Positions 8,057 to 32,420 of a stretch of DNA of 64,000 nucleotides are shown one piece after another. Made by a program: the position numbers and the translations under genes. The notes beneath the pieces are model-generated. The model saw only the letters and a list, made by a program, of their open reading frames with translations. It had not been told where the DNA came from and did no database searches. The stretch lies in the NCBI GenBank assembly GCA_963786955.1, contig CAWBAT010000006.1:288001-352000 (forward strand), written 5' to 3'. The stretch comes from an uncultured Acidimicrobiia bacterium. GTDB lineage: Bacteria > Acidobacteriota > Terriglobia > Versatilivoradales > Versatilivoraceae. The number at the start of each line of letters is the position of its first letter. The first letter of the stretch is position 1.

Positions 8057-8058
8057 CC

Positions 8059-9888: not shown

Positions 9889-10021
9889 ATAATTATCCAA
9901 CGAGAGAAAACCACGGAGAACAAAGGAATAGGATTTCCGGTCTGTAATTTGCGGTCCGCGCTTCGGACCTTTGAAGGCTGGAGAGAATACTCTTGGGCTC
10001 CGTGGTTCCATGTCTTGACTC

Positions 10022-11158: not shown

Positions 11159-11231
11159 AGGTTCTTAGATTTGTATCGCTTCTCAATCTCTGGAAATAAT
11201 TGATCAAGACTCGTTACATGGCCGAACATTC

Positions 11232-11723
11232 TCATTTCTGACCGATTTGATCGATTTCCTTCTTGATGGCCAGCTTGCCTAGGGTAGCGAGCGGCAGGCA
11301 CAAAAAAAGATTGATTCGCCGATCCAGAATCGTGAAGGCGTCGAGAAAGGCGCGGTCGATCTGCTCCTGCGAGCCTTCGACCGCAGCGGGATCGGGGATA
11401 CCCCAGTGCGCCGTCATAGGCTGGCCGGGCCATATCGGACATACTTCCTTCGCAGCGTTGTCACAGACCGTGAATACGAAGTCTAAGTGTGGGGCTTCAG
11501 GCTTCGCGAATTCTTCCCAGCTTTTGCTGTGCAAACCGGTGGTCGGGAGCTTCGCGTTCTCAATCTGCCGAAGCGCTGCGGGATGGATTTCGCCCTTGGG
11601 ATGGCTGCCAGCGCTATAACCGGCAAAGTTCGGGGGGCCTTTCCGGTTGAGAATCGCCTCGGCCATAATAGAGCGTGCAGAGTTTCCGGTACACAGGAAC
11701 AGAACGTTATAGCGGCGTTGCAT
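11232..11723 (-). CDS. arsC: Arsenate reductase, LMW-PTP family
   Basis: LFLCTGNSARS, TVCDNAAKEVCPIWPG, HWGIPDP. Confidence 0.95.
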   Translation of the reverse strand: MQRRYNVLFLCTGNSARSIMAEAILNRKGPPNFAGYSAGSHPKGEIHPAALRQIENAKLPTTGLHSKSWEEFAKPEAPHLDFVFTVCDNAAKEVCPIWPGQPMTAHWGIPDPAAVEGSQEQIDRAFLDAFTILDRRINLFLCLPLATLGKLAIKKEIDQIGQK

Positions 11724-11742
11724 GTCAATCCCCTTTCACGGG

Positions 11743-11865
11743 AGGGAAGGTGTGAAAAGATTCCGCCGGGTCGGGGGACCCGGCCTACAACATAATGGTA
11801 AGCCCTTTGAAATAATTGTAGGCCGCGTGACCTCACGCGGCGTTTTCCAATCCTTTCACACCTCC
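11743..11865. repeat. REP doublet with AGGTGTGAAA terminal inverted repeats
   Basis: AGGGAAGGTGTGAAAAG ... CCTTTCACACCTCC enclosing two GTAG hairpins. Confidence 0.65.
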
Positions 11866-11920
11866 AGGGTGCTGGTGGTTTTCGTTTCGATTCCAAAGTC
11901 TTTCGAGCGACAGTACACTG

Positions 11921-11940
11921 CATCTGCGTAGGCGAATATA
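11921..11940 (-). promoter_or_regulatory. Putative ArsR operator upstream of arsC
   Basis: Reverse complement TATATTCGCCTACGCAGATG shares TATATTCGCCTA-GC with the palindrome in front of arsR. Confidence 0.55.
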
Positions 11941-11957
11941 TAAGAGCAAAAAAAAGC

Positions 11958-12315
11958 TTACGGCGGGCAGCACCCACCCTTTTTGCGGAGCTGTTTCACT
12001 CGCTTTTCATCGGCCGCAAGTTCGGGCACGTCCAGAAAGCAACTCTGAAGACACCGGATCAGATCCCGCTGAAACTTGGTTGGCGGCAGGGGCCAGCCGA
12101 TAGTAGTTCCAAAGACCGTTCTTCCGTGTTTGAACTAAACCGGCCTTACGAAGATAGGCGAGATGCCGCGATGCAGTCGGTTGCGGAACCTGAATCGCGG
12201 CTACAATGTCTCCCACACAAAGCTCGCCACCGAGTAAGAGACGCAGAATTCGTAAGCGCGTCCCATCTGAAAACGCCCGGAACATCAAGTTGGCTTCAGT
12301 CCCCACTCTCTTCAT
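11958..12315 (-). CDS. arsR: ArsR/SmtB metalloregulator (frameshift near 12080; corrected C-terminus ...CLQSCF...KKGGCCPP)
   Basis: FRAFSDGTRLRIL, ELCVGDI, SRHLAYLRKAGLV; alternative frame reads on to TAA at 11958. Confidence 0.9.
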
Positions 12316-12337
12316 TATATTCGCCTAAGCGATTATA
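12316..12337. promoter_or_regulatory. Imperfect palindrome, putative ArsR operator abutting the arsR start codon
   Basis: TATATTCGC-CTAA-GCGATTATA. Confidence 0.6.
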
Positions 12338-12543
12338 ATGAGATTGTGTTTCCCCAGTAAAGGGTGAATTTGAATGGACACGTTTTGGGTACGTAATACA
12401 GTCTTCAAATTATTCGGGACAGCTCTGCTCCCGACCTTATAGTCAGATTTGGAATGAAGGGGAACATCTCTCTAGTAGGGCCACTGGACTTGCACTTCTT
12501 CCGCTTCTTGCATTCTTCAGGAACTCGCGCTATTATTTTCAAG

Positions 12544-12997
12544 ATGCGCGTTCTGCGAAAACTGATTGCGACCACTGTCATGCTGGTGATGGGTCTTTCC
12601 AGCATGAGTGTGGCGATGGTCGCGCAACGACGGATGCCTCAAGCGTCTAAGCCGATGGCTCCGATGTGCCCGAAACACGCGACATATTGTTGCTGTCCCG
12701 AGCTTTGTAATCCTCCTAAAGTTTCTAAAGTTGCGCCGGGATGCCATCATTCAGATAAGAAGCCGAATAATCCTGGCTTGACACCCGCCTCACAAACCTT
12801 CTCATGCTTTCTGAAAGCGGGATGTGGGAAGAACAATGACACCAGTAGCACAATGCCCTTCTTAAAAGATTTCGTTCCAGAACCGCTCGAAGAATTTGGA
12901 GCAAGATTAACAATCGCTTCATTTGTTTCTGCACTAGAATCAACTCAGCCCCTGGAATTCCCTTCCGCGCTCTTTTCACCCTCCCAAAGCCTCCTGA
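12544..12997 (+). CDS. Secreted Cys/His-rich small protein ending FHPPKAS (DUF2946/CruR/CutF-like leader); needs a 1-nt correction in the T run near 12975
   Basis: Signal-like N-terminus; MCPKH..YCCCPELC, GCHH, SCFLKAGC; shifted frame gives LFHPPKAS* with TGA at 12995-12997. Confidence 0.6.
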
Positions 12998-13185
12998 TCG
13001 ACGACTTCTTACTCAAAACACTTAACCAACGGTTCCTCACCCGTTACTGCCTAGCGGACAGGTCTCGTTGAGAGACTGATCGGATTCTCCACAAAGAGAC
13101 GATTTTCTGAGGGCAAAGACTCACTGGCATGCCCAACAGTGTTTCTCTTGGGTCGAGCTAACCGTGTCCTAAGTGTATTTCAACC

Positions 13186-15516
13186 ATGCGAGAACACTTT
13201 CAAGTACGGAAAGGAATCTTTAATGAGAGGGAAACCAAAATCGACGCACAATCAAGAAGGCGTGCGATTATTGCCGGGCTCTCCACCCGTGGTCTTATTT
13301 TATGTCTCTTAGAGATCACTCCTGCAGTTTTGGCCCAGCAGAGAATTAATGGCAAGGTTGTCAACAAAAGTACGGCATCCCCCGTGGTGAACGTTACCGT
13401 GACTATTGAAAGTAGTTTACTCCCCACGACTAGAACGGCAACGACCGACAACAACGGATATTTCTCCTTCTCTTCTTTGAATCCGGGCCGCTACACCCTG
13501 AAAACTTCGCCAGACGGGTACTATGGAGAACAAATCACCTTGCTGCTAGCACCGCGTGCAACCCAGCAGGTTGAGTTTGAACTCAATCCCAAGGAATCCG
13601 TGCAGGAAGAAGTCACCGTCACCGCCAAGCCCAAATTACTGGATGAATCCCAAGCGGCTACCATGATTACCTTGGACCCTGACCAGTTCCTCGCATTGCC
13701 TACTGCCCGCCGAACACAGTTGACAGATATCATTACACCTTACGTTGCCAGTGCCGTGGGTAGTCACGACAATCTCGTCCATTTGCGCGGGAACGAGTTA
13801 TCACTCAATACCTTTATTAATGGGGTCTCTTTTTTCGATAATCCACACCAGTTGTTCACCCCTGGACTTTCCCCGGAAATCATCCAGTCCATGAACATTA
13901 TTACGGGGGGATTTCCCGCTGAGTTTGGCAATCGCTTTGGAGGAATACTGGACATTGTGACGCGTTCCGGCTTCGACGCCAATAACCACGGCAGCGTGTC
14001 GATAGGCGCGGGAGACTACCTGCGAAATAACCTCAGCTTCGACTATGGAGGCCATACCGAACGCTTTGGATACATCTTCTATGCCCAAGGATTTGAGAAC
14101 GACCGGTTCCTCAATACGCCGCAACCACTGCTCCTTCACGACTTCGGCACAGGCCTGCGGAGCTTTGTTCAACTCGACTACCGCTCCGGAAATAACGACT
14201 TCTTCAAGCTCGCATTGACCGGCGACGGAACGAACTTCGAATTGCCAAATACCAATGAAGATGAAGAACGTGGCCGGGACTATTTTCAGCGCAACCGTGA
14301 ACAAACAGCCATCCTATCTTGGGACCATACCTTTTCCGCCACTTCCGCTTTGGCGACTTCTGTCTATGAACGGCAGGTTAGCTCACGGCTAGTGCCGACC
14401 ACCGATCCCTATTCGATCGAAGCAGGCGGATTGCGCATTGACACCACTTTAGGCGTCAAGACTGACTATTCCCTTTATCTGGGTTCTCGCCACAACATTA
14501 AGGCGGGGATCGATTTAATGCACCTCAACTTGCGGGAGGATTTTTCTTTAGACCCGCGCGAGAATGATCTGGAAATTGAACCTATTGCCTTTCGCGGGCG
14601 GAATAGTGGCGGGGAAGCCAGCGTCTACTTTCAGGATCAAATCAAGTTGTTTAAGAATTTTACAGCGAACCTCGGCATTCGTTATGATCAATACAGTCTC
14701 GTCACGAGTGCGCACGCGCTCAGCCCTCGCGTGAACCTTGCTTATGCAATCCCAAGCAGTCACAGCGTCGTGCATTTCGCTTACAATCGATTTTTTGCTC
14801 CGCCTCCCATCGAAAATCTACTCCTCTCATCCGCTCTTGGGTTTGAGGGACGTCCGCCAGGGATCTCCTCCAGTAATCATTTCGAAACCGGCGTGACTCA
14901 TTCCATCAAAGATAAGCTTCTTTTGCGAATGACGGCGTACTGGCGAGGGGACATTAATGCCTTTGAGACTACAGAGCTCGCCAACGTGCGGATTTTCGTG
15001 CCAACCACCTATGCAAAAGGAAAAGCTTATGGCTTGGAGCTTTCAGCCCAATTACCCGAGATTAAACCGATCGGATTATCCGGCTACTTTGGCTTTACGG
15101 CCCAGCGAGCTTTCCTGACAGGTCCGGTTTCTGGTGGTTTCACGGTTGAAGAGATTGCACCGGGAGACATATCACCGGCGGCCTTTGATCAGATCTATAC
15201 GGGGGTCACAGGACTCACTTGGAGAGAACACCGCACTGGAATCTGGGTGAGTGGGGCTTTAGAGTATGGGAGTGGTACGCCGGCAGCGCTACTTACTCCT
15301 GAAGGAGAGAAGTCCGTGCGACTGGATCAACACCTGGTTGCCAATCTTTCTGTTGGCGTTGATTTACTCCAAAAAGAATCGCGTCGAGTGAGCCTTCAAT
15401 TCAATGCAGAGAACTGCACTAACCGGGTGTTTGCCATCGCTAAAGAAAGCGAGTTTACCCCCATCCAATTTTCGAACCCACGCTTCCTATCCGGGTCTGT
15501 GAAATTCTATTTTTGA
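13186..15516 (+). CDS. TonB-dependent receptor with N-terminal carboxypeptidase-regulatory-like domain
   Basis: Plug motif ITGGFPAEFGNRFGGILDI, NLGIRYD, SPRVNLAY, C-terminal aromatic KFYF. Confidence 0.92.
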   Translation: MREHFQVRKGIFNERETKIDAQSRRRAIIAGLSTRGLILCLLEITPAVLAQQRINGKVVNKSTASPVVNVTVTIESSLLPTTRTATTDNNGYFSFSSLNPGRYTLKTSPDGYYGEQITLLLAPRATQQVEFELNPKESVQEEVTVTAKPKLLDESQAATMITLDPDQFLALPTARRTQLTDIITPYVASAVGSHDNLVHLRGNELSLNTFINGVSFFDNPHQLFTPGLSPEIIQSMNIITGGFPAEFGNRFGGILDIVTRSGFDANNHGSVSIGAGDYLRNNLSFDYGGHTERFGYIFYAQGFENDRFLNTPQPLLLHDFGTGLRSFVQLDYRSGNNDFFKLALTGDGTNFELPNTNEDEERGRDYFQRNREQTAILSWDHTFSATSALATSVYERQVSSRLVPTTDPYSIEAGGLRIDTTLGVKTDYSLYLGSRHNIKAGIDLMHLNLREDFSLDPRENDLEIEPIAFRGRNSGGEASVYFQDQIKLFKNFTANLGIRYDQYSLVTSAHALSPRVNLAYAIPSSHSVVHFAYNRFFAPPPIENLLLSSALGFEGRPPGISSSNHFETGVTHSIKDKLLLRMTAYWRGDINAFETTELANVRIFVPTTYAKGKAYGLELSAQLPEIKPIGLSGYFGFTAQRAFLTGPVSGGFTVEEIAPGDISPAAFDQIYTGVTGLTWREHRTGIWVSGALEYGSGTPAALLTPEGEKSVRLDQHLVANLSVGVDLLQKESRRVSLQFNAENCTNRVFAIAKESEFTPIQFSNPRFLSGSVKFYF

Positions 15517-15547
15517 GGCCTGTACTTCGCCAGAAACGACAAGCCCA

Positions 15548-15671
15548 GTAGCAACAGGCCTCCTGGCCTGTTGTCTGGGACAAGCATTCCCAGCTTTTGA
15601 GGGTAAAACTCTGCGAGAACAAATCACAAGAGATGCCCACTCCCACGACAGGCGTGGACGCCTGTCGCTAC
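15548..15671. repeat. GTAG REP pair (types A and B)
   Basis: Units match those at 5960-6020 and 25567-25657. Confidence 0.85.
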
Positions 15672-15692
15672 ATAATACAGGGCAACCTTTTC

Positions 15693-15779
15693 AGCTCTGT
15701 AGGAGCGACCTCTTTGTAGCTCCCACCCACAAACAACGGATTTAGCTCCAGCGGAGCGACCCGTGGGCTGGTTATACAG
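15693..15779 (+). repeat. 87-bp imperfect direct repeat, copy 1 (AGCTCyGTAGGAGC family)
   Basis: Colinear with 16279-16365. Confidence 0.8.
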
Positions 15780-15973
15780 AACTGCTTTTCATTGAGCATT
15801 CGCCAATCTATTCCCCCTTAACAAAGGGGGCGCGGGAGAGGTCCCAATCGGTTTCAATGCGCGTTTATTTGCGTTCATTCGCGGCCTATTTTTCTTTGCG
15901 TCTTTGCGTCTTTTTGCGGCTATCTAGTCTTCGCCTCGTGGTCCATACTCTATGTTTTCCGCCTTGAATTTAA

Positions 15974-16574: not shown

Positions 16575-16953
16575 ATGCCCTTTGCTTCAGATCAAACCGC
16601 TTGACCCAAGCGTTCCAATCTTTCAGCAACTCAACACCGATGTCTCACCTGTGGTCTTGGTGAATGTGTTCCAAGTCGCGGAAGCAGACATTCCAGCCCT
16701 TCTTAAGGCTTGGGAAGCGGACGCAAATTGGATGAAGCAGCAGCCCGGCTATATCTCAACGCAGTTGCATCAAGGCATCGCGGGCAGCACCGTGTTCATG
16801 AACTACGCGGTGTGGGAGTCCGTCGCCCATTTTCGGGCGGCGTTCAGCCATCCAGAATTCAAGAAGGCCTTAGAGCACTACCCGCCTTCAGTCGTGGCAT
16901 CGCCCCATCTTTTCACGCGACTCACGGTTCCGAATCTGTGTGTTGGTCCATAG
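16575..16953 (+). CDS. Antibiotic biosynthesis monooxygenase (ABM) family protein
   Basis: VVLVNVF, MKQQPGYISTQLH, FMNYAVWES; RBS AAGGAG before ATG 16575 (probable 1-nt indel just after the start). Confidence 0.85.
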
Positions 16954-17000
16954 GCCGTTTGAACAGGAGAGAGGAATACCAACCTTTAGAGGTGAAGATT

Positions 17001-17210
17001 ATGAAAACGTACACGGCTGTGGTCGAGCGTTGTCCTGACACAGGAATGTACGTGGGGTATGTGCCGGGTTTTCCCGGAGCCCACACCCAGGCGGAGAGCT
17101 TGGACGAATTGAATACCAACCTTCGAGAAGTGATTGGGCTGTTGCTCGAAGACAGAGAGCCTGGTTTGGAAGCGGAATTTGTAGGCACCGAGACCGTCAT
17201 CGTGGGTTGA
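17001..17210 (+). CDS. hicB: Type II TA antitoxin, HicB family
   Basis: MKTYTAVVERCPDTGMYVGYVPGFPGAHTQAESLDELNTNLREVIGLLLE. Confidence 0.9.
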   Translation: MKTYTAVVERCPDTGMYVGYVPGFPGAHTQAESLDELNTNLREVIGLLLEDREPGLEAEFVGTETVIVG

Positions 17211-17212
17211 CG

Positions 17213-17269
17213 ATGGGAAAAAATCTCATCCTTATCGAAGAATTCCTGAAACACGGTAGGTCGGCCTAA
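17213..17269 (+). pseudogene. hicA: hicA toxin remnant with large internal deletion
   Basis: 18-aa ORF MGKNLILIEEFLKHGRSA 2 bp after hicB; ends resemble HicA termini (MGK..., IEEFLK). Confidence 0.55.
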
Positions 17270-17323
17270 CCCATTCACAGCCGTTAGCCGTGTTCTAATT
17301 CAGAGCGTTTCGAGGAAGTGCAC

Positions 17324-17707
17324 ATGTCATCAAAGAAGACACCAGCAGATAGCGACGGGCAGGACGGGATTGTTGCCGAGGCGCGGCGCTACCAGGCTCA
17401 GCGGGAGCAGACCTATCGGGAGCAAGCGCTCAAGCTCTATCCCGGCATCTGTGCACGCTGCGGCCGCGAATTCAGCGGCAAAAGACTGCGCGAGCTCACA
17501 GTCCATCACAAGGACCACAACCACGACAACAATCCACCCGACGGGAGCAACTGGGAGTTGCTGTGTCTCTACTGTCACGACAATGAGCACGAGCGGTATA
17601 AGGTTGCTGATGCGTATGGTGCGGCGACACCGGGCGGGGAGCGAGAGCCCCCTTCTACCTACAGGCCGTTCGCCGATCTCGATGCCTTATTGAAGCGCAA
17701 GAAGTAG
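17324..17707 (+). CDS. yajD: YajD family HNH nuclease
   Basis: YREQALKLYP.ICARCGREF...LTVHHKDHNHDNNPPDGSNWELLCLYCHDNEH. Confidence 0.9.
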   Translation: MSSKKTPADSDGQDGIVAEARRYQAQREQTYREQALKLYPGICARCGREFSGKRLRELTVHHKDHNHDNNPPDGSNWELLCLYCHDNEHERYKVADAYGAATPGGEREPPSTYRPFADLDALLKRKK

Positions 17708-17890
17708 CCGTCCCAGTGCACTATCGACAAAAACGCATGATCGAGAGCTGGGTGGGAAAGAAAAGGAGCCAGAAACCGTTTGCCCAGGCAGCCTGCACGG
17801 GGGGGCTCCCTAGAAACTTCTTCCAGGAACGGACAGTTAGGCAACCTAAAAATATTTGGCAGTACCTTTCTATTGCACGGCCATGAAACG

Positions 17891-17945
17891 GCATAACTAG
17901 CCAGAGGCGAAGGCCTCCAGCCGGGCCTGATGCACGACGTTGGGC
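17891..17945 (+). mobile_element. Degenerate integron attC site
   Basis: GCATAAC ... GTTGGGC, 55 bp, internal hairpin but poor L boxes. Confidence 0.4.
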
Positions 17946-17954
17946 AAACTTTCT

Positions 17955-18503
17955 ATGGAAAATAATCGAATCCAAATGATACTTGTCTCCGCTGCGGCTC
18001 TGTCGTTTTGCTGCCTCAGCTATTCGGAACCTCAACTCAACAACAAGAAAGAAACCACGATGGAACCTAGGATTAGTGTCATTACATTAGGCGTATCCGA
18101 TCTGGAAAGGTCTTTTGCCTTTTATAAGAAAGGCCTTGGATTCCCAACCAAAATGACGCCTGACGGAGGGATTGTAGTTTTTGCTACTTCAGGAACACGG
18201 TTGACTTTGTATTCTTATAAGAAATTGGCAGAAGACGCTGAGCTGACGGCGCCGACAATTGAGAAGGAAAAGAATAAGTTTCCTGGATTTACGTTAGGCC
18301 ATTGTGCTCGAAAAAAAGAAGATGTTGATGCGATATTGTTGCAAGCGGAGAAGGCGGGAGGCAAGATTGTGAAATCCGCTAGAGATGTCTTCTGGGGAGG
18401 ATACAGCGGGTATTTTTCTGATCCAGATGGATACTTGTGGGAGGTTGCCTATTCAGACCAATGGAAATTTAACCCGGATGGTAGCATAGTCATGGAAGAA
18501 TAG
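17955..18503 (+). CDS. VOC/glyoxalase family protein, apparently an integron gene cassette (alternative start 18060)
   Basis: ISVITLGVSDLERSFAFYKKGLG, DVFWGGYSGYFSDPDGYLWEVAY. Confidence 0.9.
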   Translation: MENNRIQMILVSAAALSFCCLSYSEPQLNNKKETTMEPRISVITLGVSDLERSFAFYKKGLGFPTKMTPDGGIVVFATSGTRLTLYSYKKLAEDAELTAPTIEKEKNKFPGFTLGHCARKKEDVDAILLQAEKAGGKIVKSARDVFWGGYSGYFSDPDGYLWEVAYSDQWKFNPDGSIVMEE

Positions 18504-18511
18504 CAGTGAAA

Positions 18512-18572
18512 GCCCAACCAATCGCTGGAGGAACGGCGGACAAGCCGCCGTCCCTCAGCTCTAACGTTTGGC
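18512..18572 (+). mobile_element. Integron attC site (59-base element)
   Basis: R'' GCCCAAC, L'' GCTG[G]AGG, stem ACGGCGG-ACAAG-CCGCCGT, L' CCTCAGC, R' GTTTGGC; R'' is the exact complement of GTTGGGC at 17939. Confidence 0.78.
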
Positions 18573-18603
18573 GCCTGCACCACCCACCGATCCGCTGCAT
18601 GAC

Positions 18604-18669
18604 GCGATAAGGGATTCCATGGCAATGACGAACGGCAAGAACACTCTCGGCCGCGTGTACGAGTACTTC
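18604..18669 (+). pseudogene. hsdM: Short type I R-M methyltransferase (hsdM)-like remnant
   Basis: KNTLGRVYEYF resembles the conserved KDxLGRVYEYF segment preceding the GxFYTP motif of HsdM. Confidence 0.5.
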
Positions 18670-18717
18670 GTCGCGGCCAGTGGCGGTCCCGGCGCACGGA
18701 CCACAACGCGCGGATCC

Positions 18718-18969
18718 AGCAGCACACCGGCAGCGCTTTTCACTCTTGAAGGAGAGAAGATGATCCTGCTGGAACAACACCTAGTTGCCAAACTTTCTGT
18801 TGGCGTCGATCTTTTCCAGAAGGAATCCCATCAGGTGAATCAGCAATTTTATGCAGAAAACATCACTAACCGTGAGTTTGCCATCGCTAAAGAGAGCGAG
18901 TTTACCCCCGTCCAGTTTTCGTCCCTATGCTTCCTATCCGGGTTCGGGAAATTTTATTTTTGAGGCCTG
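18718..18969 (+). pseudogene. Diverged duplicate of the last 82 codons of the TonB-dependent receptor
   Basis: Ungapped match to 15271-15522, about 80% nt identity by manual count, including TGAGGCCTG at the stop. Confidence 0.9.
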
Positions 18970-19000
18970 CCTCGCTAGTGGTGACAGGTTAGACAGAGAG

Positions 19001-19031
19001 AGGGGGAGCAGATGAGGCTCTTCCTCCCCCT
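19001..19031. terminator. Hairpin between convergent genes
   Basis: AGGGGGAG ... CTCCCCCT. Confidence 0.35.
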
Positions 19032-19146
19032 ATCAATCTCTTAGTGCATGCATTCGCCGCATTTAGGGTAACCGCTTTCTTTCAGGCCTCTCCACATCTC
19101 TCTTTTGGATGACCGCATTATCACCATAACATTTCGAAAAGATTCG

Positions 19147-20796
19147 CTAACGGTAAAGTGAGGCTGCAGAGCGAGCAACCCTATTCAAACTAGACCGAAC
19201 TTCATAAAGCAGATCATCCCCAGGTATACTTGGGTCCTGTTGAAGCACGTGATGCCCAAGTGCCATCGCATACTCACTAAATGCAATCTCAAAACACAAC
19301 CGGCGAAAAGCAACGTCTTCAGGTCCACTCGTTTCTAGTGCAGCCTTAACAACAGGGTGATCAAGATTAATTAATATTGTTAGTATAGCCGGATCGTATC
19401 TGGAACGGTCTTCTGTAGAACCCAAGTGCTGATGCTTTACTCGAAAACCGCCCCGCGGCATGCTCTGTTTTGATGATCCCGAGCCAGCACGGTCGACGGT
19501 CCTGTTGCCTTTATCATCTCTTGTAGCAGGTCTGACAAGGCGTGGATCGCTGCGCCCCCCTGAATTGCCAACAACTTTTAACTTATTCCTATTGTCAAAA
19601 CGGCCTGGTTCAGTTCCGCCTTCTATCCACGATTCCTCGCTACCCCCTCCAACCTGAGCACGGCCAGATCGTTGTGCTGCTGCACCCGGCGCAATGGCTG
19701 TCGCCCTTATGTCGGTCAACCGGTCCAGAAGACTTGTAAAATCTTCGTTGAGAACCTCCGCGATTCGGTTAGCCTCAGCGTCAAGCCTTCTGGCCTCCTC
19801 GGTTTTGCGAGCCTCTTTGGCACGCCGAACCAAATCGCTCCTAACCAGTTCTAATTTTGAACCGATGAACCCCAGCAGAACAGCTGCAACAGGATGCTGG
19901 GGATTCAACTGTAGTGACCTAGTAGGATCGAAAGGCTGCAATGGACTGTCAGATCTCTCTAACTCTGGAACGTCTATTTCTCCGAAGAGGTAAGTTCCAA
20001 ACTCTTTGTTCTCGACACCTGCACGCTCTACGGACAAGAGATTTCCGCCACCCGCTGTGATCGTAATACCTTGGTCCGCCTCCCTCAGTGGGGCACGTGC
20101 CACTTTGATAAGCAGCTCAACATCACCGATTACTCGAGCTTGAGATTCGGTTGGCCGGAAAGAGTGGATTGTGTCAATCTCGGGTTCCCGGTAACAGCAA
20201 ACATGGTTATTTACTGCTACCTCCGGCATTAATGCACGGAAAACTTGAAGATGACGCTCGATGTACTCAACGATTGGTTGTGTCCTTATGCGTTCCAGAG
20301 CTATGTCTTCTATAGAGATCATCGTTCCATTAGGTGTACCTACTCTCTCGTTTCGAATTTCCCATACGAGCGGGATGTCCTCTCCATTGGAATTTTCTAT
20401 TTTTTCACGCGTGAGGATAATGACGTTCCTTAGCCCCTTCCGAACTGTGTCGACTCTCAAACATCGAGCGATCCCGAAGGCAGCTGACTTCCCAGTACCG
20501 AACTTGCCTCTTCCTGGTCGACCCCGAAGACGATCAAGGTTCTCGGCATGCATTTTGAAGAAATGTTCCAGGTCCGGTTCATCCATACCGCGACCATTAT
20601 CACTTATTCTAATTATTCGTTGCTGGGGTAAAACGTCCACGACGACTCGAGGGGCAACGTTCCTGTCTACGAATTGAAGACTGTTAACTACGTACTCCCA
20701 CACAGCAGCAGCTTCAGTTTTAAAAGAAGTAGCCGACGCAAGTAGATCGCGACCGACGTGGGATGTGACTTTGATTTCTGCCAAACGCTTTTTCAT
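19147..20796 (-). CDS. GHKL (MORC/HATPase_c_3-like) ATPase
   Basis: EYVVNS (N-box), ISDNGRGM (G1), GKFGTGK (G2), NGT (G3), C-terminal INLDHP. Confidence 0.85.
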   Translation of the reverse strand: MKKRLAEIKVTSHVGRDLLASATSFKTEAAAVWEYVVNSLQFVDRNVAPRVVVDVLPQQRIIRISDNGRGMDEPDLEHFFKMHAENLDRLRGRPGRGKFGTGKSAAFGIARCLRVDTVRKGLRNVIILTREKIENSNGEDIPLVWEIRNERVGTPNGTMISIEDIALERIRTQPIVEYIERHLQVFRALMPEVAVNNHVCCYREPEIDTIHSFRPTESQARVIGDVELLIKVARAPLREADQGITITAGGGNLLSVERAGVENKEFGTYLFGEIDVPELERSDSPLQPFDPTRSLQLNPQHPVAAVLLGFIGSKLELVRSDLVRRAKEARKTEEARRLDAEANRIAEVLNEDFTSLLDRLTDIRATAIAPGAAAQRSGRAQVGGGSEESWIEGGTEPGRFDNRNKLKVVGNSGGRSDPRLVRPATRDDKGNRTVDRAGSGSSKQSMPRGGFRVKHQHLGSTEDRSRYDPAILTILINLDHPVVKAALETSGPEDVAFRRLCFEIAFSEYAMALGHHVLQQDPSIPGDDLLYEVRSSLNRVARSAASLYR

Positions 20797-21407
20797 TTCT
20801 GTCCCTCATTCACACCAAGAAATTTCGCAGCAACATCAAGAAACTCTGCAATGTCAGGATCCTCAATAAATAATCCATGCAACCTTGTGACCTTTGATTG
20901 CCGCAGTGTCTCGTCTGAATAGCTGTCTACGCGGAACAATTCGCGTGCCTCTGCAGGCGTTATCCTCCTGTTGCCAGAAGTCCAGCGTGCCCATGCTGAG
21001 GATGCAAGCAACCTTTCTCTCTCGCGGGTTCTCCTAGTTGAGTCGATTGATTTGAGCATTGACTCCGATCTATGCCTGTCAATCTGAAGGTTTGGCATCT
21101 TGGCCTTCATTGATGTAGCCCATTTCAGCCCCCGAACTGTGAGAGACCAGCCCGTTCGGCCCGAACCAGATATCAAAGCTCCCTTCATCGGCTTTTTTGC
21201 ATCCGAGAGAAATACTCGTACGAGTTCAAGATTGATCTGGTCCGGATACTTTCTCCAAACAAACCGCCCAGGGGCTAGTTCATGTGCTTTAACCGCTATA
21301 TCCTCGGTATCTAGCCGATGCTGGTCCCCACCCAAGACATAAACTGCCCACACTACAGCATCTCTCTGCGATATACTTGTCAAGGATTTTTTCTTGTTTT
21401 TTTTCAT
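20793..21407 (-). CDS. Hypothetical protein, probable winged-helix DNA-binding domain
   Basis: DTEDIAVKAHEL...VRVFLSDAKK...GWSLTVRG resembles a wHTH wing; ATGA overlap with the ATPase. Confidence 0.6.
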   Translation of the reverse strand: MKKNKKKSLTSISQRDAVVWAVYVLGGDQHRLDTEDIAVKAHELAPGRFVWRKYPDQINLELVRVFLSDAKKPMKGALISGSGRTGWSLTVRGLKWATSMKAKMPNLQIDRHRSESMLKSIDSTRRTRERERLLASSAWARWTSGNRRITPAEARELFRVDSYSDETLRQSKVTRLHGLFIEDPDIAEFLDVAAKFLGVNEGQK

Positions 21408-21417
21408 TGACCGAGTA

Positions 21418-21446
21418 ATATTAATGACGGATTAACCGATAGTCAA
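21418..21446 (-). promoter_or_regulatory. Putative sigma70 promoter giving a near-leaderless transcript
   Basis: TTGACT-17 bp-TAATAT, ending 10 nt before the ATG at 21407. Confidence 0.5.
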
Positions 21447-21459
21447 GGAATTTTTGTAT

Positions 21460-23606
21460 ATGAAAGGTATTGCTCAATGGGGCTTTCGACCAACGCCCCT
21501 TCTCCCAGAGATCCTTAGAGATCGCTGGACAGGAGAACTGCCAAAATGGGTCATATCCGAGCTCAACCTGTTACCTGGATCGTCATTCGGTTCATTAGGA
21601 TCCGGTGTCTGGAAGAATTTTTCTGAAGCCGGAGTATCTGGAAGGATCCGCTCATTTCTGATTAGCGCCATAAGGAACCGCCTTGCGGAAGTAAGCGATC
21701 TCTGCCTCATAAATGAAGTATGGCCGAAGAGTTTGCTGCCCCGAGATGTTCCTTGGTCGGCACGTACAAGGAACTGCTTAGAAAAAGAAGGACTTCTCGA
21801 CGACCCAGCGAGACTCGTGAAGCTTAGGGTAAAAGACCTCTTGCGAATTCATGCTTTTGGGGCAGCATCCGTTTTGGATTTGTCTTGCGTAGCTGAAGCG
21901 GTTCTAACAGCAGGGCGGTCTCGTCCTCCTGAGCCTTCTAATGTGGTGGCCGATATTCTCTATTTGATTGAGCATGATTGGGCTGAACAGATCAGTTCTG
22001 ATGACCCGAGATTTGCAGACATAATTCCGGTTGGAAGTGGGAACTCTATGAACGGGTCGATCGGCTGACTGTTGAACCCCAGGATCCGCCATTGGAGGAG
22101 AATGAGCTTGCTGAGGCAATTCCTGCAATTATTAACCGAATTGATCAGATAAGCTCTTTGAGATTGGAAATCGCTATCATTGAATTAGTAAAAAGCATCT
22201 CACATCTTGAAGGCAAGCGCCTCCATGCGCTGGCAAGACGGCTTGGTGTCGATGGGAAGCCACCCGCAACACTTGAGCACGCGGCAAGTTCAATTGGGTT
22301 AACAAGAGAGAGGATGCGCCAGTTGCAGCAAAAATTTGAAGAGCGGCTCCCGAGACACAATCTTTTTCTGCCTCAACTTGACAAAGCAATAAAGCTCATA
22401 GAAGAAAAAGCTCCTTGTTCAAAGAAACATGTTGAAGAGGTAATACAATCGGTAGGGATAACCAATATCAAGTTTGACGTCGAAAGTATTATTGCTGCTG
22501 CTGAATTAATGAAGAGGCCCATTGCATTCGAGCTGGATGGTTCCCTCAGTCGTGTAAGACGACGAGATTCAGCTAAACTAGAACAATCTATTCGATACGT
22601 TTCTCATCGTCAGGCAAGCGCTTCCGGAGTGAGTAATGCCCATGAAGTTGTTGCTGAAATTGAATCATTAGGACTCTCTGTTACTGAGGCAGACGTCCAC
22701 GAATTCCTTCAGTCGTCACATGAGTTCGAATTTCTCGACTCAAACTGGTACTGGTATCCACCAGCCCCGCCTGATAGAAATAGGCTAAGAAACGTATCCA
22801 GGAAAATGCTCTCCGTTTCAGCTGTGATTCCTTTACCCGATCTCAGAGAAGGAATTAGGCGCCATTATCGAGTACGCACCTCTAGAGGACTTGGGACGTG
22901 GCCTCTCATAGTACCTCCGAAGGCTGTTTTGTTGAATTTCTATAAGTCTCATCCAGAGTTCTCTGTTGACTCTGAGGAGACTGTATCTTCTATTGTACCT
23001 TTGGACTATCGCAGGGAACTTAATTCTACTGAACAAATTCTTGTTGATGCTATTCGATCAACTCCAAGCCAGGTCTTAGACAGGGAAAATCTTGCGAGAC
23101 AATGCATTAACCAGCACGGGATGAACGGAAATACTTTCTCGCAATATTTGTACTCAAGCCCTGTGATAAATCATCTCGGCACGGACCTTTGGTCTTTGCG
23201 TGGTATTCGGATAGATCCGGCTTCTGTGGAAGCAGTTCGTCAAGCTAACGCTCTCAGAACCAGAGAAAAACGCATTGTCGACCACGGCTGGACGGAGGAA
23301 GGTGATCTTTGGATTGTCGCGAGGATTCCCCATGAACCGGCCAGGTTCGTACTTGGAATACCTGCACCAATTCGACATATTCTCGGAGAACAAGAATTCG
23401 TTGCAGTTGAGAACACAGGAGTCCCTTCGGGAATTATTCGGACAAACTCCGAAGGAGTTTCTTATGGATATGGGACCTTCCTAATACGTAGGGGCGCTGA
23501 TGAGAATGACTTACTTCTCGCAAAGTTTCGGCTCTCGCAAAAACAGGTCGAGCTTCAGCTTATCGATGACGATGAATTAGAAGAGATGAGTCCAACTCCC
23601 GACTAA
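21460..23606 (+). CDS. About 715-aa protein with an RNAP alpha-CTD-like domain and a sigma70 region-4 HTH (1-nt frameshift near 22040)
   Basis: WSARTRNCLEKEG...DLLRIHAFGAASVLDL (alpha-CTD); RLGVDGKPPATLEHAASSIGLTRERMRQLQ (sigma-4); downstream frame stays open back to the G run at 22039-22041. Confidence 0.8.
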
Positions 23607-23731
23607 CATTTAGTGGCCAAAATATATAGACGACCAGTCCTCCAGGAACGATCATCCTGGCCAACTAGGGCAGTGGCCACCTAACCATTACAACCGTGGC
23701 CGCAGTCTATAGTTACGTTTCCAACGTGACC

Positions 23732-23850
23732 GATCTATTCTAGATCGTGATCGTACGAGACATGTGGCTCACGGGCTTTGACGCGCCGAGCTTGTACACG
23801 ATTTACGCGGAAAAGCCGATGCGCGAACACTGGTTGATGCAATCTGTTGG
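23732..23850 (+). pseudogene. hsdR: Type I restriction endonuclease subunit R remnant
   Basis: [36 protein letters not shown] corresponds to HsdR helicase motifs V-VI, with an in-frame stop. Confidence 0.85.
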
Positions 23851-24101
23851 CATTGTAAATGATCAAGTCGTTACTTGCCTCCGCCTTGATAAAGTGAAAA
23901 TCAGCCCCAGCGCAGGGAACATACTCAGCGACCCAGCCGCCACCTCGATGCTCAAGCTCGTACAAACGCATTATGTATTGTTACGAATTACCCACGCCTC
24001 GCTTTGCTCAGCGTGGCTACCCAAGCGGGATTGTAACGCCAATTTAATGCGTTTGTTTTAGTTCATCGGGCAATCCAACGAAACAGCAAAGGAGAATCTT
24101 C

Positions 24102-25286
24102 ATGCAATCCCACCACACCAACCGTTACAGGGCCGGTCTTATCGCAGCTCTGACATTGCTGTTCTCCTCCCCGGCTATGGCCGCCGATGGCAAGACGGAA
24201 GGGGGCAACGCTGCGGTGGACCCCTTCGTCGGCCTCCAGCCGGGTCTGGGCAGCTTGCCGCTCCTCGGCCGGGGACGCACCCGGTCGATCTCGGCCGAGA
24301 ACCCGACCGGCGAGAAAGGGAAAGGGCGGCATGGCAATCCCCAATCCGACCGAGCCCAAGCCGGCGGCGAGCGCCCGGGCTGCGGACGACCTCGGCCAGG
24401 GTTGGAAAGTCCGGCCTTTCATCCGAGTCAACGCCGGGAAACGGCGGTACTCATGGATGTGGCCGGCCCGGGGATCATCCAGCACATCTGGATGGTCGAA
24501 GGATCTAAACCGCGGCCTTGTCATCCGGTTCTACTGGGATGGCGAAGAGACTCCATCGGTGGAGTCGCCCGTCCCGGACTTCTTCGCCGTGGGCCACGGC
24601 CGGTTCGCGCCGGTGAATTCCCTGGCGGTCGTGGTCAACCCCGCCAACGCCCTGAATTGTTTCTGGCCGATGCCGTTTCGGACGCGCGCCCGGATCACTC
24701 TGACCAATGAAACCGACGAGGATGTTAGTTGGTGGCCTACCAGATCACCTACGTGGAGACCGAGGTCCCTGCCGCGGCTGGCACCTTCCACGCCCAATAT
24801 CGCCGGGCAACGACGGGAGAGCAGAATCCGTACATAATCCTCGATGGCGTGAAGGGACGGGGTCGCTACGTCGGCACATTCCTGGCCTGGACCCAGATGG
24901 AGAAGGGCTGGTTCGGCGAGGGAGAGATCAAGTTCTACATGGACGGTGACGACCGGTTCCCGACGATCTGTGGCACCGGAACCGAGGATTATTCCTGGGC
25001 AGCTACGGCTTCCCCAACCGTTTACGACGGCCTACTCCGGGACGGTCCTGCCAGCTAACGAGAACAACCCACCGCCCAACTTCTGGAGCCTTTACCGTTG
25101 GCACATTCAGGATCCGATCAATTCGAGCAGGATTTGCGGGTAACGATTCAGGCTCTGGGATGGGGCGGACCCCAATACCGAAAGCTCGGGAAAGACGACA
25201 TCTCCTCGGTCGCTTACTGGTACCAGGTTGAGCCCCATGCACCCTTCCCGAAACTCCCAGCTCTCGCCGAGCGGCTCAGGCCATGA
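24102..25286 (+). CDS. DUF2961 / GH172 family glycoside hydrolase, several frameshifts
   Basis: RSISAENPTGEKG, GPGIIQHIWM, RFYWDGEETPSVE, WFGEGEIKFYMDGD, GTGTEDY, SVAYWYQ. Confidence 0.85.
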
Positions 25287-25450
25287 TTGGCGGGGGAAAT
25301 GAGTCGCCTCCCCCCATCGGGAGAGCGTTTCACCGAATCCGAAGACTCCGAGGCGGGGGGATTTCACGCCTGTGAATAGGACATCCCCCGCAGCCTTGCA
25401 TGAAGGCTTCTCAAGCCTTCATCCCCCTTCCAAGGGGGACTTTTTCAATT

Positions 25451-25690
25451 CCCCAGGGCGGCGCGCTCAAGCGCTGGCCCTGGGCTACAATCGGTGGCCC
25501 TTACAGGGCCGAAAAGTGGCTCAGCGTCAGGCGTTCTGGTAACCCCTGTGTCATCCACACAAGACAGTAGCAACAGGCCTCCTGGCCTGTTGTCCGGGGC
25601 CAACGGCCCCGGCTACAACAGCAAAACCCCACGACAGGCGTGGACGCCTGTCGCTACAAAAGACTTTCCGGGGCCAGCGGCCCCGGCTAC
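25451..25690. repeat. REP-like hairpin cluster (types A, C, B, C plus others)
   Basis: Same units as 5960-6133; lies between convergent genes. Confidence 0.85.
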
Positions 25691-25705
25691 AAAAAGCGGT
25701 TGTCG

Positions 25706-26986
25706 CTACTTCAGTAAGAGTCCAGCCTGCTTGCGAAGGTTGAGCTGGTTCTTTTCTTCTTCCAATTTAACATCCAAATATTGTAACCAACGACCGCTCT
25801 CTTCCCGCCGTACTTCTTCCAGCTTGGCAAGTGGAATTTTCCCTTCATCGTAACTGGCTTGGGCAACCTGCAAATTTTCACGAGCAAGCTGAGCCTCCAG
25901 AGCCGCAACCTCTGCTCTGGCTTTAAGAACCTGCAGATTTGCCAATTCGCTTTGCGTCTCCATTCGAATCTGATCGGAGCGTAATTTGATCTTTAGTCTT
26001 GCTTCATCCTGAAGGGCTTGAAGCCGGCGTTTCTCAGGATTCAAGGTCGGGTTAATCAAAGGTACTTGAATCGAGAATCCAATAGTGACGTTATTTCGTT
26101 GAAAGTTGTTAAAGTACTTGTCGTAATTATTAAACGTGCTAAAGAGATCATAGCGTCCGACCAAGTTCACAACCGGACGGAACCAGCCGTTCAAGCCTTC
26201 CTCCGCAACTTGAGACGATTTCTCTTGAAGGCGCAATTGCATGAGGGCTGGATCTCTGTCCAAGGCCGCCAACAGCAATGTCTCTTCTGACCATTCCGCG
26301 GCACTCCCCCCTGGATCCTCCGCTTTCAAGTGTTAAGGAGACGCCCGGCGCCACGCCAGTCGCTTGCCTGAGTTGCTCTTCCAGAAGTTGCAGATTCTTT
26401 TCATTGGTTGTGAGAGTCACTTTAGTCTTTGCCAATTCCAGCTTTGCCCTGGTCAGCTCGCGAGGCTGTGCAACGCCTGCCTCAACCCGGGCTGCGATGA
26501 TTTCGCGCGTTTTTCCAAGGCTTTCCAGTTGAGTTTGGTAATACTGGTGCCGCTCTCGCTGATTCCGTAAATCCAGGAAGATCCGACCGGCTTCCAGCGC
26601 TGCTTTCTGTTGCACGGATTCCACTTCAGCCTGAGAACCTTCTTCCTGAAGTTCAGCAGCATCTGCTTGTTTACGCTGATTACGATCGTAAAGCGTTTGA
26701 ATGTAATTCACATTAAACAAAGAAGGGGCCGCCCCTTCAATACTCAAGGGGAATCCGTAAGTCCCTGCGATACCCGTTCCTACGCTCAAATGGGGACCAA
26801 AAGGCGCTTTTTCCAGATCCCTTCCGGGCAGCGGCAGTCTCATGTGCCTGTTTTGGCTATTTGAACCTGCTGACTCAATTCAGAAGCACGCTCGAGAGTC
26901 CCTTCCAGAGTGAGATTCAAGGACTCAGCTAAACCCAGGCTGGGCAAACTTATCACCATCAACATGAAACCAATGTTCCTATTCAT
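25706..26986 (-). CDS. TolC family outer membrane efflux protein (frameshifted)
   Basis: Helical OEP repeats across ORFs 26148-26843 and 25706-26329; signal peptide from ATG 26986. Confidence 0.8.
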
Positions 26987-30600: not shown

Positions 30601-32420
30601 TCACGGGACATTCGTGAAGACAAACTTACCCCCACTGGAAGCGAAAACGGTGAGATTTCCAAGGAACTGCTCCAGCCGGGGGCGCGATGTTGCGGGGGCC
30701 ACGAGATAGAGTCGTTGTGGCCCCTTCCACAATTGAGCCAACTCAGGATCCTCAATAAATACAGGAGGGGCGAGCGGCGCCGCAGATCCATAGACGAGAT
30801 TATCAGCCCTTCCATTGAGAAGCAAGGCTGGAAGACCCGTATAAAAACCTACGGAAGACGCCGGATAATAATGCCCCTCGAGAATCAGCTTCCCTTCCGG
30901 GCCAGAAGTAATGGCTTCCGCCAGCGGGCGCGAAGACAGATAGGGGTCAAATACCGCCATCGCCCATCTGGCTGCATGAAAAAAAAGAATCATCATCGCC
31001 GCCAGGCACAACGGCCCCAACCAATGGCGCCGAGAAAACCAGGCGCCTAGAGTGCCGCCTACGAATGCGAGAGCGGCCAGCAGGAGTGGACCGCGCAGAT
31101 AGGCAAAAGAAGCAATGGTCAAATCGTGCAGATGTCCCATTGACAAAGTGTAAGTTTCGGGATGTTGGGTGAGAGCCGTCGAAATATCGCCTACCACAAC
31201 GACTCCACGGCTCATCGAATAGGAGGATACAGGACACCACTCCGAAAAGGACTCCGACAAAGACCAGTACTCCGTAGCCGATCGGAACCCATCGGTTGGC
31301 TCCGATGGCCAGTGCCGCCCCGACGAGAATGGCAAAGGCCGGATAACAGGGCATGCTGTAATACTCTTGGGTTGTCGAAAAACTCAGAAAGGTGAGCAAA
31401 AACACAATCCAGACGATCACGAGCAGTCGAAGGCTTTTTGTACGGACAGTCCTTTCATCTCGGGAAGAAAATAAGGCCGCTGGCAGAAATACACTCCATG
31501 GAAAGATCCACACCAAGTGCAAGAGCAGGAAAGCAAGCCGCGGAACGGTATTGTAGTCTCGCGGATAGCGCAAATTCAGGAATCGTAAGATATGTTCGTT
31601 GATGAAATAAAACCATAGGAACCCGTGGTACACACCCGGTTCGCTCCGGAATGTGAAATCAAAAATCGGAGGGTTTCGCCAGGCCGCCAGGATCACCCAT
31701 GGCAAGTAGATCGCCAGCATGAGTCCGATTCCCGATACTGGACGGAGCAGAGCCCAAGTCCGGCGAATGAAGAATCTTCTCTGGATGAGAAGAAATACCG
31801 TTGCGGTGGCCACCGGGACGAGCACCGCCAGCAATCCCTTGAGCAACAAACCCGCCCCCAGGGATACCCAGAATCCATAGGCCCAAGCTTTCTTTTCATC
31901 GATGACGGTTCGAAGGAAACAATACAACGCAACGGTGATCGCCAGGGTGAGCAGTACGTCCGGGATCATGAATCGCGTGAACAGAGAATAATCCCACACT
32001 GGTTCCCATCACTAAGCCTGAATAGAATCCTGCCCGAGGCCCGTAGGCCCAAGCTCCCATGATCGCGGTAACCCACATCAAGGCAGTCGCACCGAGCGCG
32101 ATCGGTAATCGCGCCGCCCAGTCATGCACGCCGAAAACGGCGTAACAGACTGCCGTTAACCAGTAGCCCAACGGAGATTTTTCAAGGTAGAGAACGCCAT
32201 TGATTCGGGCCGTCACCCAATCGCCGGATTCCAGCATCGTTCGGGCAATCTGCGCATTGACGGCATCTACATCGTCCATCAGCGAAGGAGGGGAAAGAAT
32301 CGTCCCGACATAAATCGCTATCCCGACGACGAGAAGGATTAAAGTGTGGGTGAGGTTTCTTGAACGGCCATGGAACGAGCTAGCGGTTCCATTTGTTGGA
32401 AGGGGGATTGAATTTGCCAT
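30601..32420 (-). CDS. ArnT/GT83-like lipid-carrier glycosyltransferase (2 frameshifts)
   Basis: DDVDA...MLESGDWVT.RINGV.YLEKSPL.YW, WAARLP, LKGL, YYSMP. Confidence 0.88.

Follow-up and report, generated by a model that had tools for sequence, protein, structure and literature searches.

A GHKL ATPase, a winged-helix protein and an RNA polymerase-derived protein form a three-gene cassette with a predicted role in genetic conflict

What could three neighbouring genes do together when the first encodes an ATPase of the GHKL type, the second a small winged-helix protein and the third a large protein that joins the C-terminal domain of the RNA polymerase alpha subunit (alpha-CTD) to sigma-70 region 4 (sigma-4)? 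The question is raised by a block at positions 19147-23606 of a 64,000-nucleotide stretch of DNA from an uncultured bacterium (GenBank assembly GCA_963786955.1, contig CAWBAT010000006.1, positions 288,001 to 352,000), hereafter the window, to whose positions the coordinates refer. Four open reading frames (ORFs) make up the block, 19147-20796 (549 aa) and 20793-21407 (204 aa) on the minus strand and 21454-22068 (204 aa) and 22092-23606 (504 aa) on the plus strand, the last two being parts of the large gene. GHKL ATPases recur in bacterial defence and their mode of action is poorly understood. An initial annotation of the block had read it as a candidate anti-phage system, supposedly a DNA-clamping or silencing module triggered by a sensor.

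Considering all the evidence, we think it rather probable that the cassette is a self-contained, horizontally mobile conflict module, most likely acting against phages or plasmids, a prediction drawn from the genes alone. A defence role fits because the cassette is rare and patchy and lies in variable flanks, a subset of which carries integrases, transposases, methylases, GmrSD, PIN proteins and OLD-like ATPases. It also fits because the ATPase is nearest to the N-terminal GHKL part of the BbrUII/HgiDII restriction enzymes, and because one distant variant is embedded in an operon with a SNF2 helicase and a DUF1156 methylase.

Occurrence of the trio and its surroundings

Metagenome contigs yielded 533 ATPase relatives in a scan, of which we kept the best 80; their loci form 62 clusters at 95% nucleotide identity. 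The small gene lies directly before the ATPase gene in all 62 loci whose upstream sequence exceeds 650 nt. Where it exceeds 3000 nt, both halves of the large gene are present on the opposite strand in 37 of 39 loci. L061 and L081 are the exceptions, and in L081 only the N-terminal part escaped detection. Pairwise distance matrices of the three proteins, computed over 25 loci, correlated with r 0.85-0.89, values that none of 2000 permutations reached and that are inflated by the relatedness of the loci. By these counts the three families nearly always co-occur, as the proposed grouping of the genes had implied, and the trio is a fixed unit. A gammaproteobacterial chromosome (L001) also carries the three genes, with order and orientation unchanged (53%, 43% and 29-35% identity). 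A single-protein scan of genome contigs gave one locus.

Two of these loci deserve a separate description. L061 and L062 have ATPase genes at least 95% identical, and the full trio stands in L062. In L061 the large gene is gone, the match to the small gene begins only at residue 45, and an ORF of 488 aa is found upstream; here the cassette has been disrupted naturally. In L001 a P4-type tyrosine integrase (2363-3613) lies on one side of the cassette and a 1293-aa PIN-TPR-GreABC protein (9002-12880) on the other, surroundings that look like a genomic island with another conflict system.

We also looked for genes travelling with the trio. No fourth gene recurs, the largest family among 612 flanking ORFs spanning 3 loci, and, with no family common to the flanks, we discarded the possibility that the trio controls one and the same neighbouring operon. 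Among the longer flank proteins, 149 of 154 matched 116 different Pfam families, and those 149 included families of conflict and mobility: Phage_integrase (3), rve (3), N6_N4_Mtase (3), GmrSD_N (2), Mu transposase (2) and NYN (2). PADLOC models matched in the same set were MTase_II (3) and mad2 (6). Across 10 long loci the cassette has 20 immediate neighbours, of which 6 belong to the integrase, transposase, PIN, RHS or AAA_21 types.

The surroundings also bear on a different explanation, by which the cassette would have no part in immunity and would control or silence transcription for a mobile element or the host, for example as an ATPase-driven repressor complex that occludes a promoter. 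Integrases or transposases do adjoin some copies, all the non-ATPase parts of the trio are transcription-type DNA-binding domains, no killing domain is present in it, and the divergent promoter region, described below, is tight and conserved in length, suggesting autoregulation. However, no consistent operon or element travels with the cassette, its downstream neighbours lie on either strand in roughly equal numbers (judged by eye), the plasmid and phage collections searched contained no copy, and the distant variant is wired to a DNA methylase and a SNF2 helicase. We hold this explanation to be unlikely.

As to distribution, 401 genomes were sampled from the window's phylum and 401 from that of L001; counting the seed genomes, 2 of the former and 1 of the latter have the ATPase. 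Scoring of 8000 candidates gave 1483 ATPase homologues at E≤1e-3, and the family of the large protein has 1756 representatives at 50% identity. No named laboratory organism is among the listed sources of the family. The cassette is rare and patchy in genomes and horizontally spread, yet the family is large.

The distant variant lies in another genome of the window's phylum (G362; locus L084, G362:C4:17000-33000), as a six-gene operon at 2508-15816 on the minus strand, with all genes on one strand and gaps of at most 36 nt. Its genes encode a protein of 343 aa that fits no family; a SNF2 ATPase of 1516 aa, closest to RapA (E 1.7e-36) and named superfamily II helicase in its source; homologues of the small protein (43% identical) and of the GHKL ATPase (41-43%); a large-protein homologue of 812 aa (E 2e-48, 28% identical over 640 aa) with two alpha-CTD-like stretches; and a 988-aa DUF1156 protein, named adenine DNA methylase by the sources. 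This variant ties the trio to modification-based immunity at a single locus. As described in PMC11232893, Hma consists of the Snf2 helicase HmaA, the DUF1156 methylase HmaB and the DUF499 ATPase HmaC. The G362 operon shares with Hma and class 1 DISARM the SNF2 helicase and the DUF1156 methylase, here in one operon with the trio families, but its ATPase is a GHKL protein with two partners; on this comparison it looks like an Hma-like system having the GHKL trio in place of the DUF499 ATPase. The window itself has no Snf2 helicase and no DUF1156 protein among the scanned ORFs of 16582-26843. About 10 kb on each side of the G362 operon held no long ORF (largest 619 and 521 aa), no family search having been aimed at DUF499. 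Several homologues of the 343-aa protein and of the methylase have longest contigs of equal size (67039, 334533, 20342 and 14446), a hint of their co-occurrence elsewhere.

The three proteins and the divergent promoter

The ATPase gene (19147-20796, minus strand) is intact. Its product matches PF13589 (HATPase_c_3) with E 1.1e-14 and HATPase_c more weakly (2.7e-5), and PF13589 was found in 25 of 25 family members. Alignment of 25 homologues showed that E34, N38, D66, G68, G70, G95-K103 and N156-G157-T158 are invariant, residues that we take to be the Bergerat motifs I-IV (N box, G1, G2, G3). Judged by these putative ATP-binding motifs, the protein belongs to the GHKL (Bergerat-fold) ATPases. 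Nearly all of the 120 homologues listed have 546-556 aa and are 57-70% identical. All matches to named families are confined to the N-terminal ~190 residues and stay far under the cut-offs. For this GHKL module (residues 10-196; 20209-20769, minus strand), the best NCBIfam family is that of the BbrUII/HgiDII restriction enzymes, matched over positions 9-199 of its 659-position profile with E 2.1e-10 and 39.8 bits (cut-off 550), and further matches are two MutL models (3.2e-5 and 1.2e-4), MzaB (3.8e-5) and topoisomerase VI-B. The ATPase profile found HtpG in the PDB with E 8.6e-4.

The sequence past the GHKL domain begins with a conserved middle part, then turns helical and charged, runs through a long stretch rich in Gly, Arg and Ser, and ends in a conserved C-terminal domain of 110 residues (19150-19479, minus strand), whose mean column identity is 67% over 32 sequences. 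In the numbering of this domain, G10, G11, F12, N38, R60, E64, E69, D82 and D89 are invariant, and D40 and H41 are kept in at least 90% of the 32 sequences. It gave no PDB match at E≤10 and no named ESM Atlas family. MutL combines an N-terminal GHKL ATPase with a long flexible linker and a conserved C-terminal domain, and the cassette ATPase resembles it in architecture only; no transducer or C-terminal endonuclease domain was matched in the libraries searched. Read from the sequence, its layout would be MutL-like, in that a coiled coil and a long low-complexity linker would join an ATP-gated N-terminal domain to the conserved C-terminal domain. The initial annotation had called the protein a MORC-like GHKL ATPase. 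The GHKL part of this name stands. Sequence searches for the S5 transducer families (Morc6_S5, DNA_mis_repair) gave 0 of 25 members at E≤0.5, so that the likeness to MORC is unproven beyond the GHKL fold. Leads to Morc6_S5 came from the ESM Atlas, where two neighbouring clusters have the family in 27% and 20% of their members and the C-terminal part of the ATPase scored 0.80, a value to be taken as a lead only.

The small gene (20793-21407, minus strand) encodes 204 aa. In its model (predicted local distance difference test, pLDDT, 88.6), the first ~108 residues form a winged helix, with helices at 14-24, 34-44 and 60-71 and strands at 79-82 and 86-89, and the C-terminal half is a helical domain. 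Comparison of residues 1-108 by VIA returned mostly winged-helix DNA binders at Z 9.2-7.6 (best root-mean-square deviation, rmsd, 2.4 over 76 aligned residues). In agreement with the original call of a winged helix-turn-helix-like gene, the modelled three-helix bundle with its beta-hairpin wing points to this fold. Neither Pfam, PADLOC nor NCBIfam matched the protein; the best PDB match of its profile had E 1.4 and the best Foldseek match E 0.16. Weak MukF rows in the Foldseek output were not relied on.

The stop of the small gene overlaps the ATPase start by 4 nt as ATGA (20793-20796, minus strand), with GAGGGA upstream, and a 1-4 nt overlap or abutment of the two genes recurs in many homologous loci. 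The overlap was read directly from the sequence, and the pair is translationally coupled, as proposed. Prediction of the complex of small protein and ATPase gave an ipSAE of 0.42 (0.44, 0.42 and 0.41 in three runs), a level at which a pass is more likely to be false than true unless a strong prior speaks for it; the best of 3 controls gave 0.00, the runs agreed in at least 75% of contacts and the partner pLDDT was at least 78. In calibration, 58 of 80 solved complexes and 2 of 110 mismatched pairs reached the mark, and 7 of those 80 together with both passing mismatches lay at 0.60 or under. These values weakly support a pairing of the small protein with the ATPase, and it is because of the translational coupling together with this prediction that the two may be supposed to act together.

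This pairing recalls a precedent of another kind. According to PMC13373217, CapK/CapS is a pair made up of a GHKL-fold kinase, small and of the anti-sigma type, and a DNA-binding substrate with a STAS domain, regulating immune operons. By analogy, the GHKL protein of the cassette could be a kinase of the anti-sigma-factor type, phosphorylating the small or the large protein as CapK does CapS and so switching other transcription, an analogy that the sigma-like partner also invites. However, HATPase_c_3 scores better than HATPase_c in our protein, whose nearest families are of the restriction-enzyme, MutL, MzaB and HtpG types; its 549 aa include a long C-terminal extension, its small partner has a winged helix and not the STAS domain of CapS, and no fixed operon lies downstream. 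We regard a kinase as very improbable.

Between the coupled pair and the large gene lies a divergent region (21408-21459) of 46 bp when counted to the TTG at 21454 and 52 bp to the ATG at 21460, in accordance with the ~50 bp first reported. It carries a putative sigma-70-like promoter on the minus strand at 21446-21418 (TTGACT, 17 nt, TAATAT), facing the operon of the small gene and the ATPase. Among 43 dereplicated loci in which both anchors are present, 37 have them 47-61 nt apart, and a TTG...TAnnnT-like pattern was seen by eye in the divergent regions of homologous loci. Terminator and promoter scans gave region-wide counts no higher than in shuffled sequences. Three loci (L068, L071 and L074) have ~550 nt extra between the start regions, and in L068 and L071 the large ORF reads through much of it.

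The large gene is a single ORF of ~700-785 aa in its intact homologues, a few being called longer and that of L029 being cut at 322 aa. The window copy is in two pieces, of which the 5' piece is 29% identical to the 746-aa protein of L001 and the 3' piece 57% identical to P0121 (716 aa), the closest intact relative, on which the protein was modelled (pLDDT 88.7). No catalytic or enzyme family was found in 39 members.

The domain calls of alpha-CTD and sigma-4 made at first sight stand at the profile level. The sigma-4 helix-turn-helix (22188-22352, plus strand) matches NCBIfam RpoS with E 2.5e-9 in the window copy, and the family profile finds RpoS region 4 in the PDB with E 3.6e-12; its recognition-helix string tRERvRQiq aligns almost letter for letter with TRERVRQIQ of RpoS. 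PF04545 (Sigma70_r4) is present in 37 of 39 members. No other sigma region was found in the 39 members at E≤0.01, so the protein lacks the combination of regions 2 and 4 that would make it a sigma-70 factor. The alpha-CTD-like (HhH)2 domain (21757-21879, plus strand) matches PF03118 with E 0.014 in the window copy alone, and the family profile finds RNA polymerase alpha in the PDB with E 6.4e-6 (8syi_A) and 5.1e-5 (1z3e_B). In this region of the family R102 and G134 are invariant, an arginine and a glycine that align with the DNA-binding determinants of the alpha-CTD. The number of alpha-CTD copies varies from 1 to 3 within the family, with two or three clear copies in the longer relatives P0129, P0223, P0186 and P0182 (868-941 aa; PF03118 E 2.8e-64 for 3 copies, 3.5e-26 for 2 copies, and 7e-14). 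The dimerisation and assembly domain of the alpha N-terminus was not found, NCBIfam rpoA matching over model positions 243-297 only.

Behind sigma-4 follow a tandem winged-helix array (22563-23225, plus strand; mapped from P0121 residues 370-590 and approximate owing to an alignment offset) and a C-terminal pseudobarrel like those of B3 and EcoRII-N (23283-23603, plus strand; mapped from P0121 residues 610-716). In VIA, the array aligned with the SelB winged-helix pair (Z 8.8, rmsd 3.4, 115 aligned) and its residues 517-590 with single winged helices (Z 7.6-6.4); Foldseek matched it to the winged-helix arrays of UFL1/DDRGK1 and SelB with E 2.4e-3 to 8.9e-3. The C-terminal domain aligned with the B3 domain of At1g16640 (Z 7.5, rmsd 3.5, 92 aligned), the N-domain of LlaJI.R1 (Z 7.5, rmsd 3.5, 97 aligned) and that of EcoRII (Z 6.6, rmsd 3.7, 103 aligned, 21% identity). 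Taken together, the matches to the B3/EcoRII-N fold have middling Z values of 7.5-6.4 with 90-103 residues aligned, and Foldseek matches to plant B3 had a probability of 0.99-1.00 but E 0.006-0.09; the model therefore suggests a B3/EcoRII-N-like end at the level of the fold only.

Aravind and Iyer reportedly described in 2012, in Cell Cycle, bacterial proteins combining features of RNA polymerase alpha and sigma with HARE-HTH, so the architecture of the large protein may already have been published, in restriction-type contexts. The 39 members gave no Pfam match to HARE-HTH at E≤0.01.

Phages target surfaces of sigma region 4 and of the alpha-CTD (AsiA, ORF67, Alt/ModA). The large protein could accordingly be conceived as a guard or decoy, in which the alpha-CTD and sigma-4 are copies of polymerase surfaces bound or modified by phage takeover proteins and switch on the pair of small protein and ATPase. 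The recognition helix is indeed near-identical to that of primary and RpoS sigma factors, the arginine aligned with the DNA-contact arginine of the alpha-CTD is invariant (R102), the alpha-CTD copies vary in number, and the sigma-4 unit aligns structurally best with Staphylococcus aureus sigmaA domain 4 taken from a complex with a phage protein (4g6d; VIA Z 8.2, rmsd 2.9, 62 of 62 residues aligned, 32% identity). However, DNA binding would call for the same conserved residues, a decoy would have no use for the four or more further DNA-binding domains of the protein, and a literature search on decoy, sigma region 4 and anti-phage found nothing relevant. We consider this possibility quite unlikely; if it were true, the cassette would be a nuclease-free immunity that guards the host transcription machinery instead of reading foreign DNA.

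The window copy and its neighbourhood

The 715-aa protein initially annotated is not an open frame in the window. The large gene occupies two stop-to-stop frames, 21436-22068 and 22005-23606, overlapping over 22005-22068, and the full length of 715 aa is obtained only after correction of a one-base shift. When the full-length family profile was run against the genome, positions 11-208 matched with E 1.1e-53 and positions 208-726 with E 3.8e-208, the two matches meeting at position 208, that is at 22041-22044 (plus strand). The 5' piece (21460-22044, frame 1, plus strand) carries the conserved N-terminal region and the alpha-CTD-like domain, and the 3' piece (22041-23606, frame 0, plus strand) the rest. 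The same genome has no second intact large gene, the other three profile matches covering only the sigma region-4 positions 249-314.

As the large gene is frame-shifted, this copy is either inactive or mis-assembled. For this copy, we see an even balance between an assembly error, with a locus functional in the organism, and genuine damage. The frame shift is the single defect, with no other stop in either piece, both pieces still match the family profile strongly, and at least three more genes of the 64 kb (DUF2961, OEP and PMT_2) are split between frames. On the other side, the trio sits among real remnants, namely the HsdR fragment and the last 81 aa of a TonB-dependent receptor paralogue described below, which makes decay plausible; the frame-shift site is outside any long homopolymer; and no contig from four public sequencing runs, sharing at most 0.18 of words, spans 21988-22291.

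With four split genes in the 64 kb, the large gene included, the question of assembly indel errors arises. The DUF2961 gene (24102-25286) is broken into at least 2 frames (profile positions 2-74 and 76-167) and is probably a decayed foreign gene. The OEP (TolC-like) gene at 25706-26843, beside an intact permease gene, and the PMT_2 glycosyltransferase gene at 30947-32504 are each split between two overlapping frames.

GC content is 0.46-0.50 over 19-24 kb and 0.62 in the next kilobase (24-25 kb), within which the DUF2961 gene lies, the window being typically ~0.51; the block is AT-richer than its right flank, as had been noticed. The restriction-modification remnant reported near the trio is a type I HsdR fragment at 23747-24061 (T1R_D3-like, E 2.1e-8), which retains 37 residues of domain 3 of the R subunit (profile positions 104-140) and has no partner genes nearby. 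The toxin-antitoxin gene that had been called in the surroundings comes down to a HicB-like 69-aa ORF scoring 25.7 bits, under the Pfam cut-off of 27.3. On the other side of the trio, the end of the ORF at 18568-18963 duplicates, at 73% identity, the final 81 residues of the TonB-dependent receptor whose gene lies 3 kb upstream (13186-15516); it is a remnant of a paralogue or of an insertion event. Between the receptor and its partial copy lie an ABM monooxygenase, a HicB-like ORF, an HNH protein and a glyoxalase-family gene. A search for flanking repeats or target-site duplications around the trio gave short two-copy matches only, at chance level.

Relation to known systems and possible mode of action

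In agreement with the first impression that the trio is not a named system, PADLOC-DB 2.0.0 gave no system match, with one weak domain match (REase_II, E 0.007) and nothing for the other proteins, and NCBIfam 20.0 gave sub-threshold domain matches only, far under the cut-offs and including MzaA and MzaB. Pfam has no family for the small protein, the parts of the large protein not derived from RNA polymerase or the tail of the ATPase. A literature search found no description of a cassette combining GHKL with alpha-CTD/sigma-4, and no experiment on it in print.

Four known systems offer partial likenesses, besides CapK/CapS and MutL. MZA is a five-gene system whose further genes are MzaC-E, and the trio resembles it in pairing a large protein containing sigma-70 region 4 with a GHKL ATPase in a presumed defence locus, with weak matches to MzaA (NF041931, E 2.2e-4) and MzaB (NF041932, E 3.8e-5). 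However, the window proteins score 20.2 and 22.2 bits, far under the equivalog cut-offs of 800 and 850; sigma-4 lies at positions 642-696 of 726 in the MzaA model and at about residues 240-310 of 716 here; and neither a PADLOC match to the system nor a gene family present in more than 3 dereplicated loci beside the pair was found. The BbrUII/HgiDII family (NF050001), as said, is the best match of the N-terminal 190 residues of the ATPase, but the nuclease part of those enzymes is absent from it. Hma and class 1 DISARM were compared above with the G362 operon.

Prokaryotic MORC and paraMORC GHKL ATPases of restriction-modification systems were described by Iyer, Abhiman and Aravind (2008, PMC2292703), and the main theme of that paper is their link to superfamily II helicases and methylases. 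The cassette ATPase resembles them in its intact ATP motifs, its family-specific C-terminal extension and its patchy, laterally mobile occurrence, and through the one distant variant (G362) linked to a superfamily II helicase and a methylase. In contrast, sigma is mentioned 0 times in the text of the paper, and the trio type comes without helicase, nuclease or methylase and with no S5 domain detected by sequence. The operon link to helicase, endonuclease and methylase is present in G362 only, the trio type having no recurrent neighbour. In these terms the cassette is a GHKL-based, restriction-type conflict system with a sigma-like partner, known here from its genes.

How could such a system work? 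We propose that the large protein would be a DNA reader that decides where the system acts, since the sigma -35 recognition helix and the alpha-CTD arginine and glycine are kept. Its reading modules would be the 1-3 alpha-CTD units, sigma-70 region 4 with the intact -35 recognition helix, the winged helices and the B3/EcoRII-N-like end. The small winged-helix protein and the GHKL ATPase, made from their coupled operon, would be the working part, the ATPase possibly serving as a dimeric DNA clamp gated by ATP, as in MutL or MORC. It might close on, or compact, the DNA marked by the reader, and the outcome would be a block on transcription or replication of the incoming DNA, or the recruitment of other factors. 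Complex formation, DNA clamping, the target and the defence role are what we infer from the domains and the gene arrangement.

Several results weigh against a role of the cassette in conflict with phages or plasmids, or against parts of this scheme. Searches of the trio gave no domain of a nuclease, toxin, methylase or helicase; as to nucleases and methylases, this agrees with the initial annotation, none of the three proteins belonging to such a family. The ATPase family was found in 0 of 72,556 plasmids (E≤1e-20) and 0 of 50,697 phage records (E≤1e-10), and the 35 pattern matches among IMG/VR viral contigs included no relative. Ten of the 20 immediate neighbours have no Pfam match and 4 are of ordinary or non-specific families (an amino-acid permease, a formyl transferase, an LTXXQ and a TPR protein), so that the defence-island signal is modest. 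To the same side belong the variant with SNF2 helicase and methylase, known from one locus only, the frame-shifted large gene of the window, the S5 domain expected of MutL- or MORC-type clamps but missing from the sequence searches, the MutL-like layout, predicted from sequence only, and the low band of the complex prediction.

The cassette reduces the problem of GHKL defence to three proteins without nuclease, methylase or helicase, one of which is a reader assembled from the promoter-recognition parts of RNA polymerase. If the cassette protects, it would represent a new, nuclease-free way of acting against foreign DNA, or a guard of the transcription machinery, and it would explain the MzaA-type sigma-like proteins of other systems.

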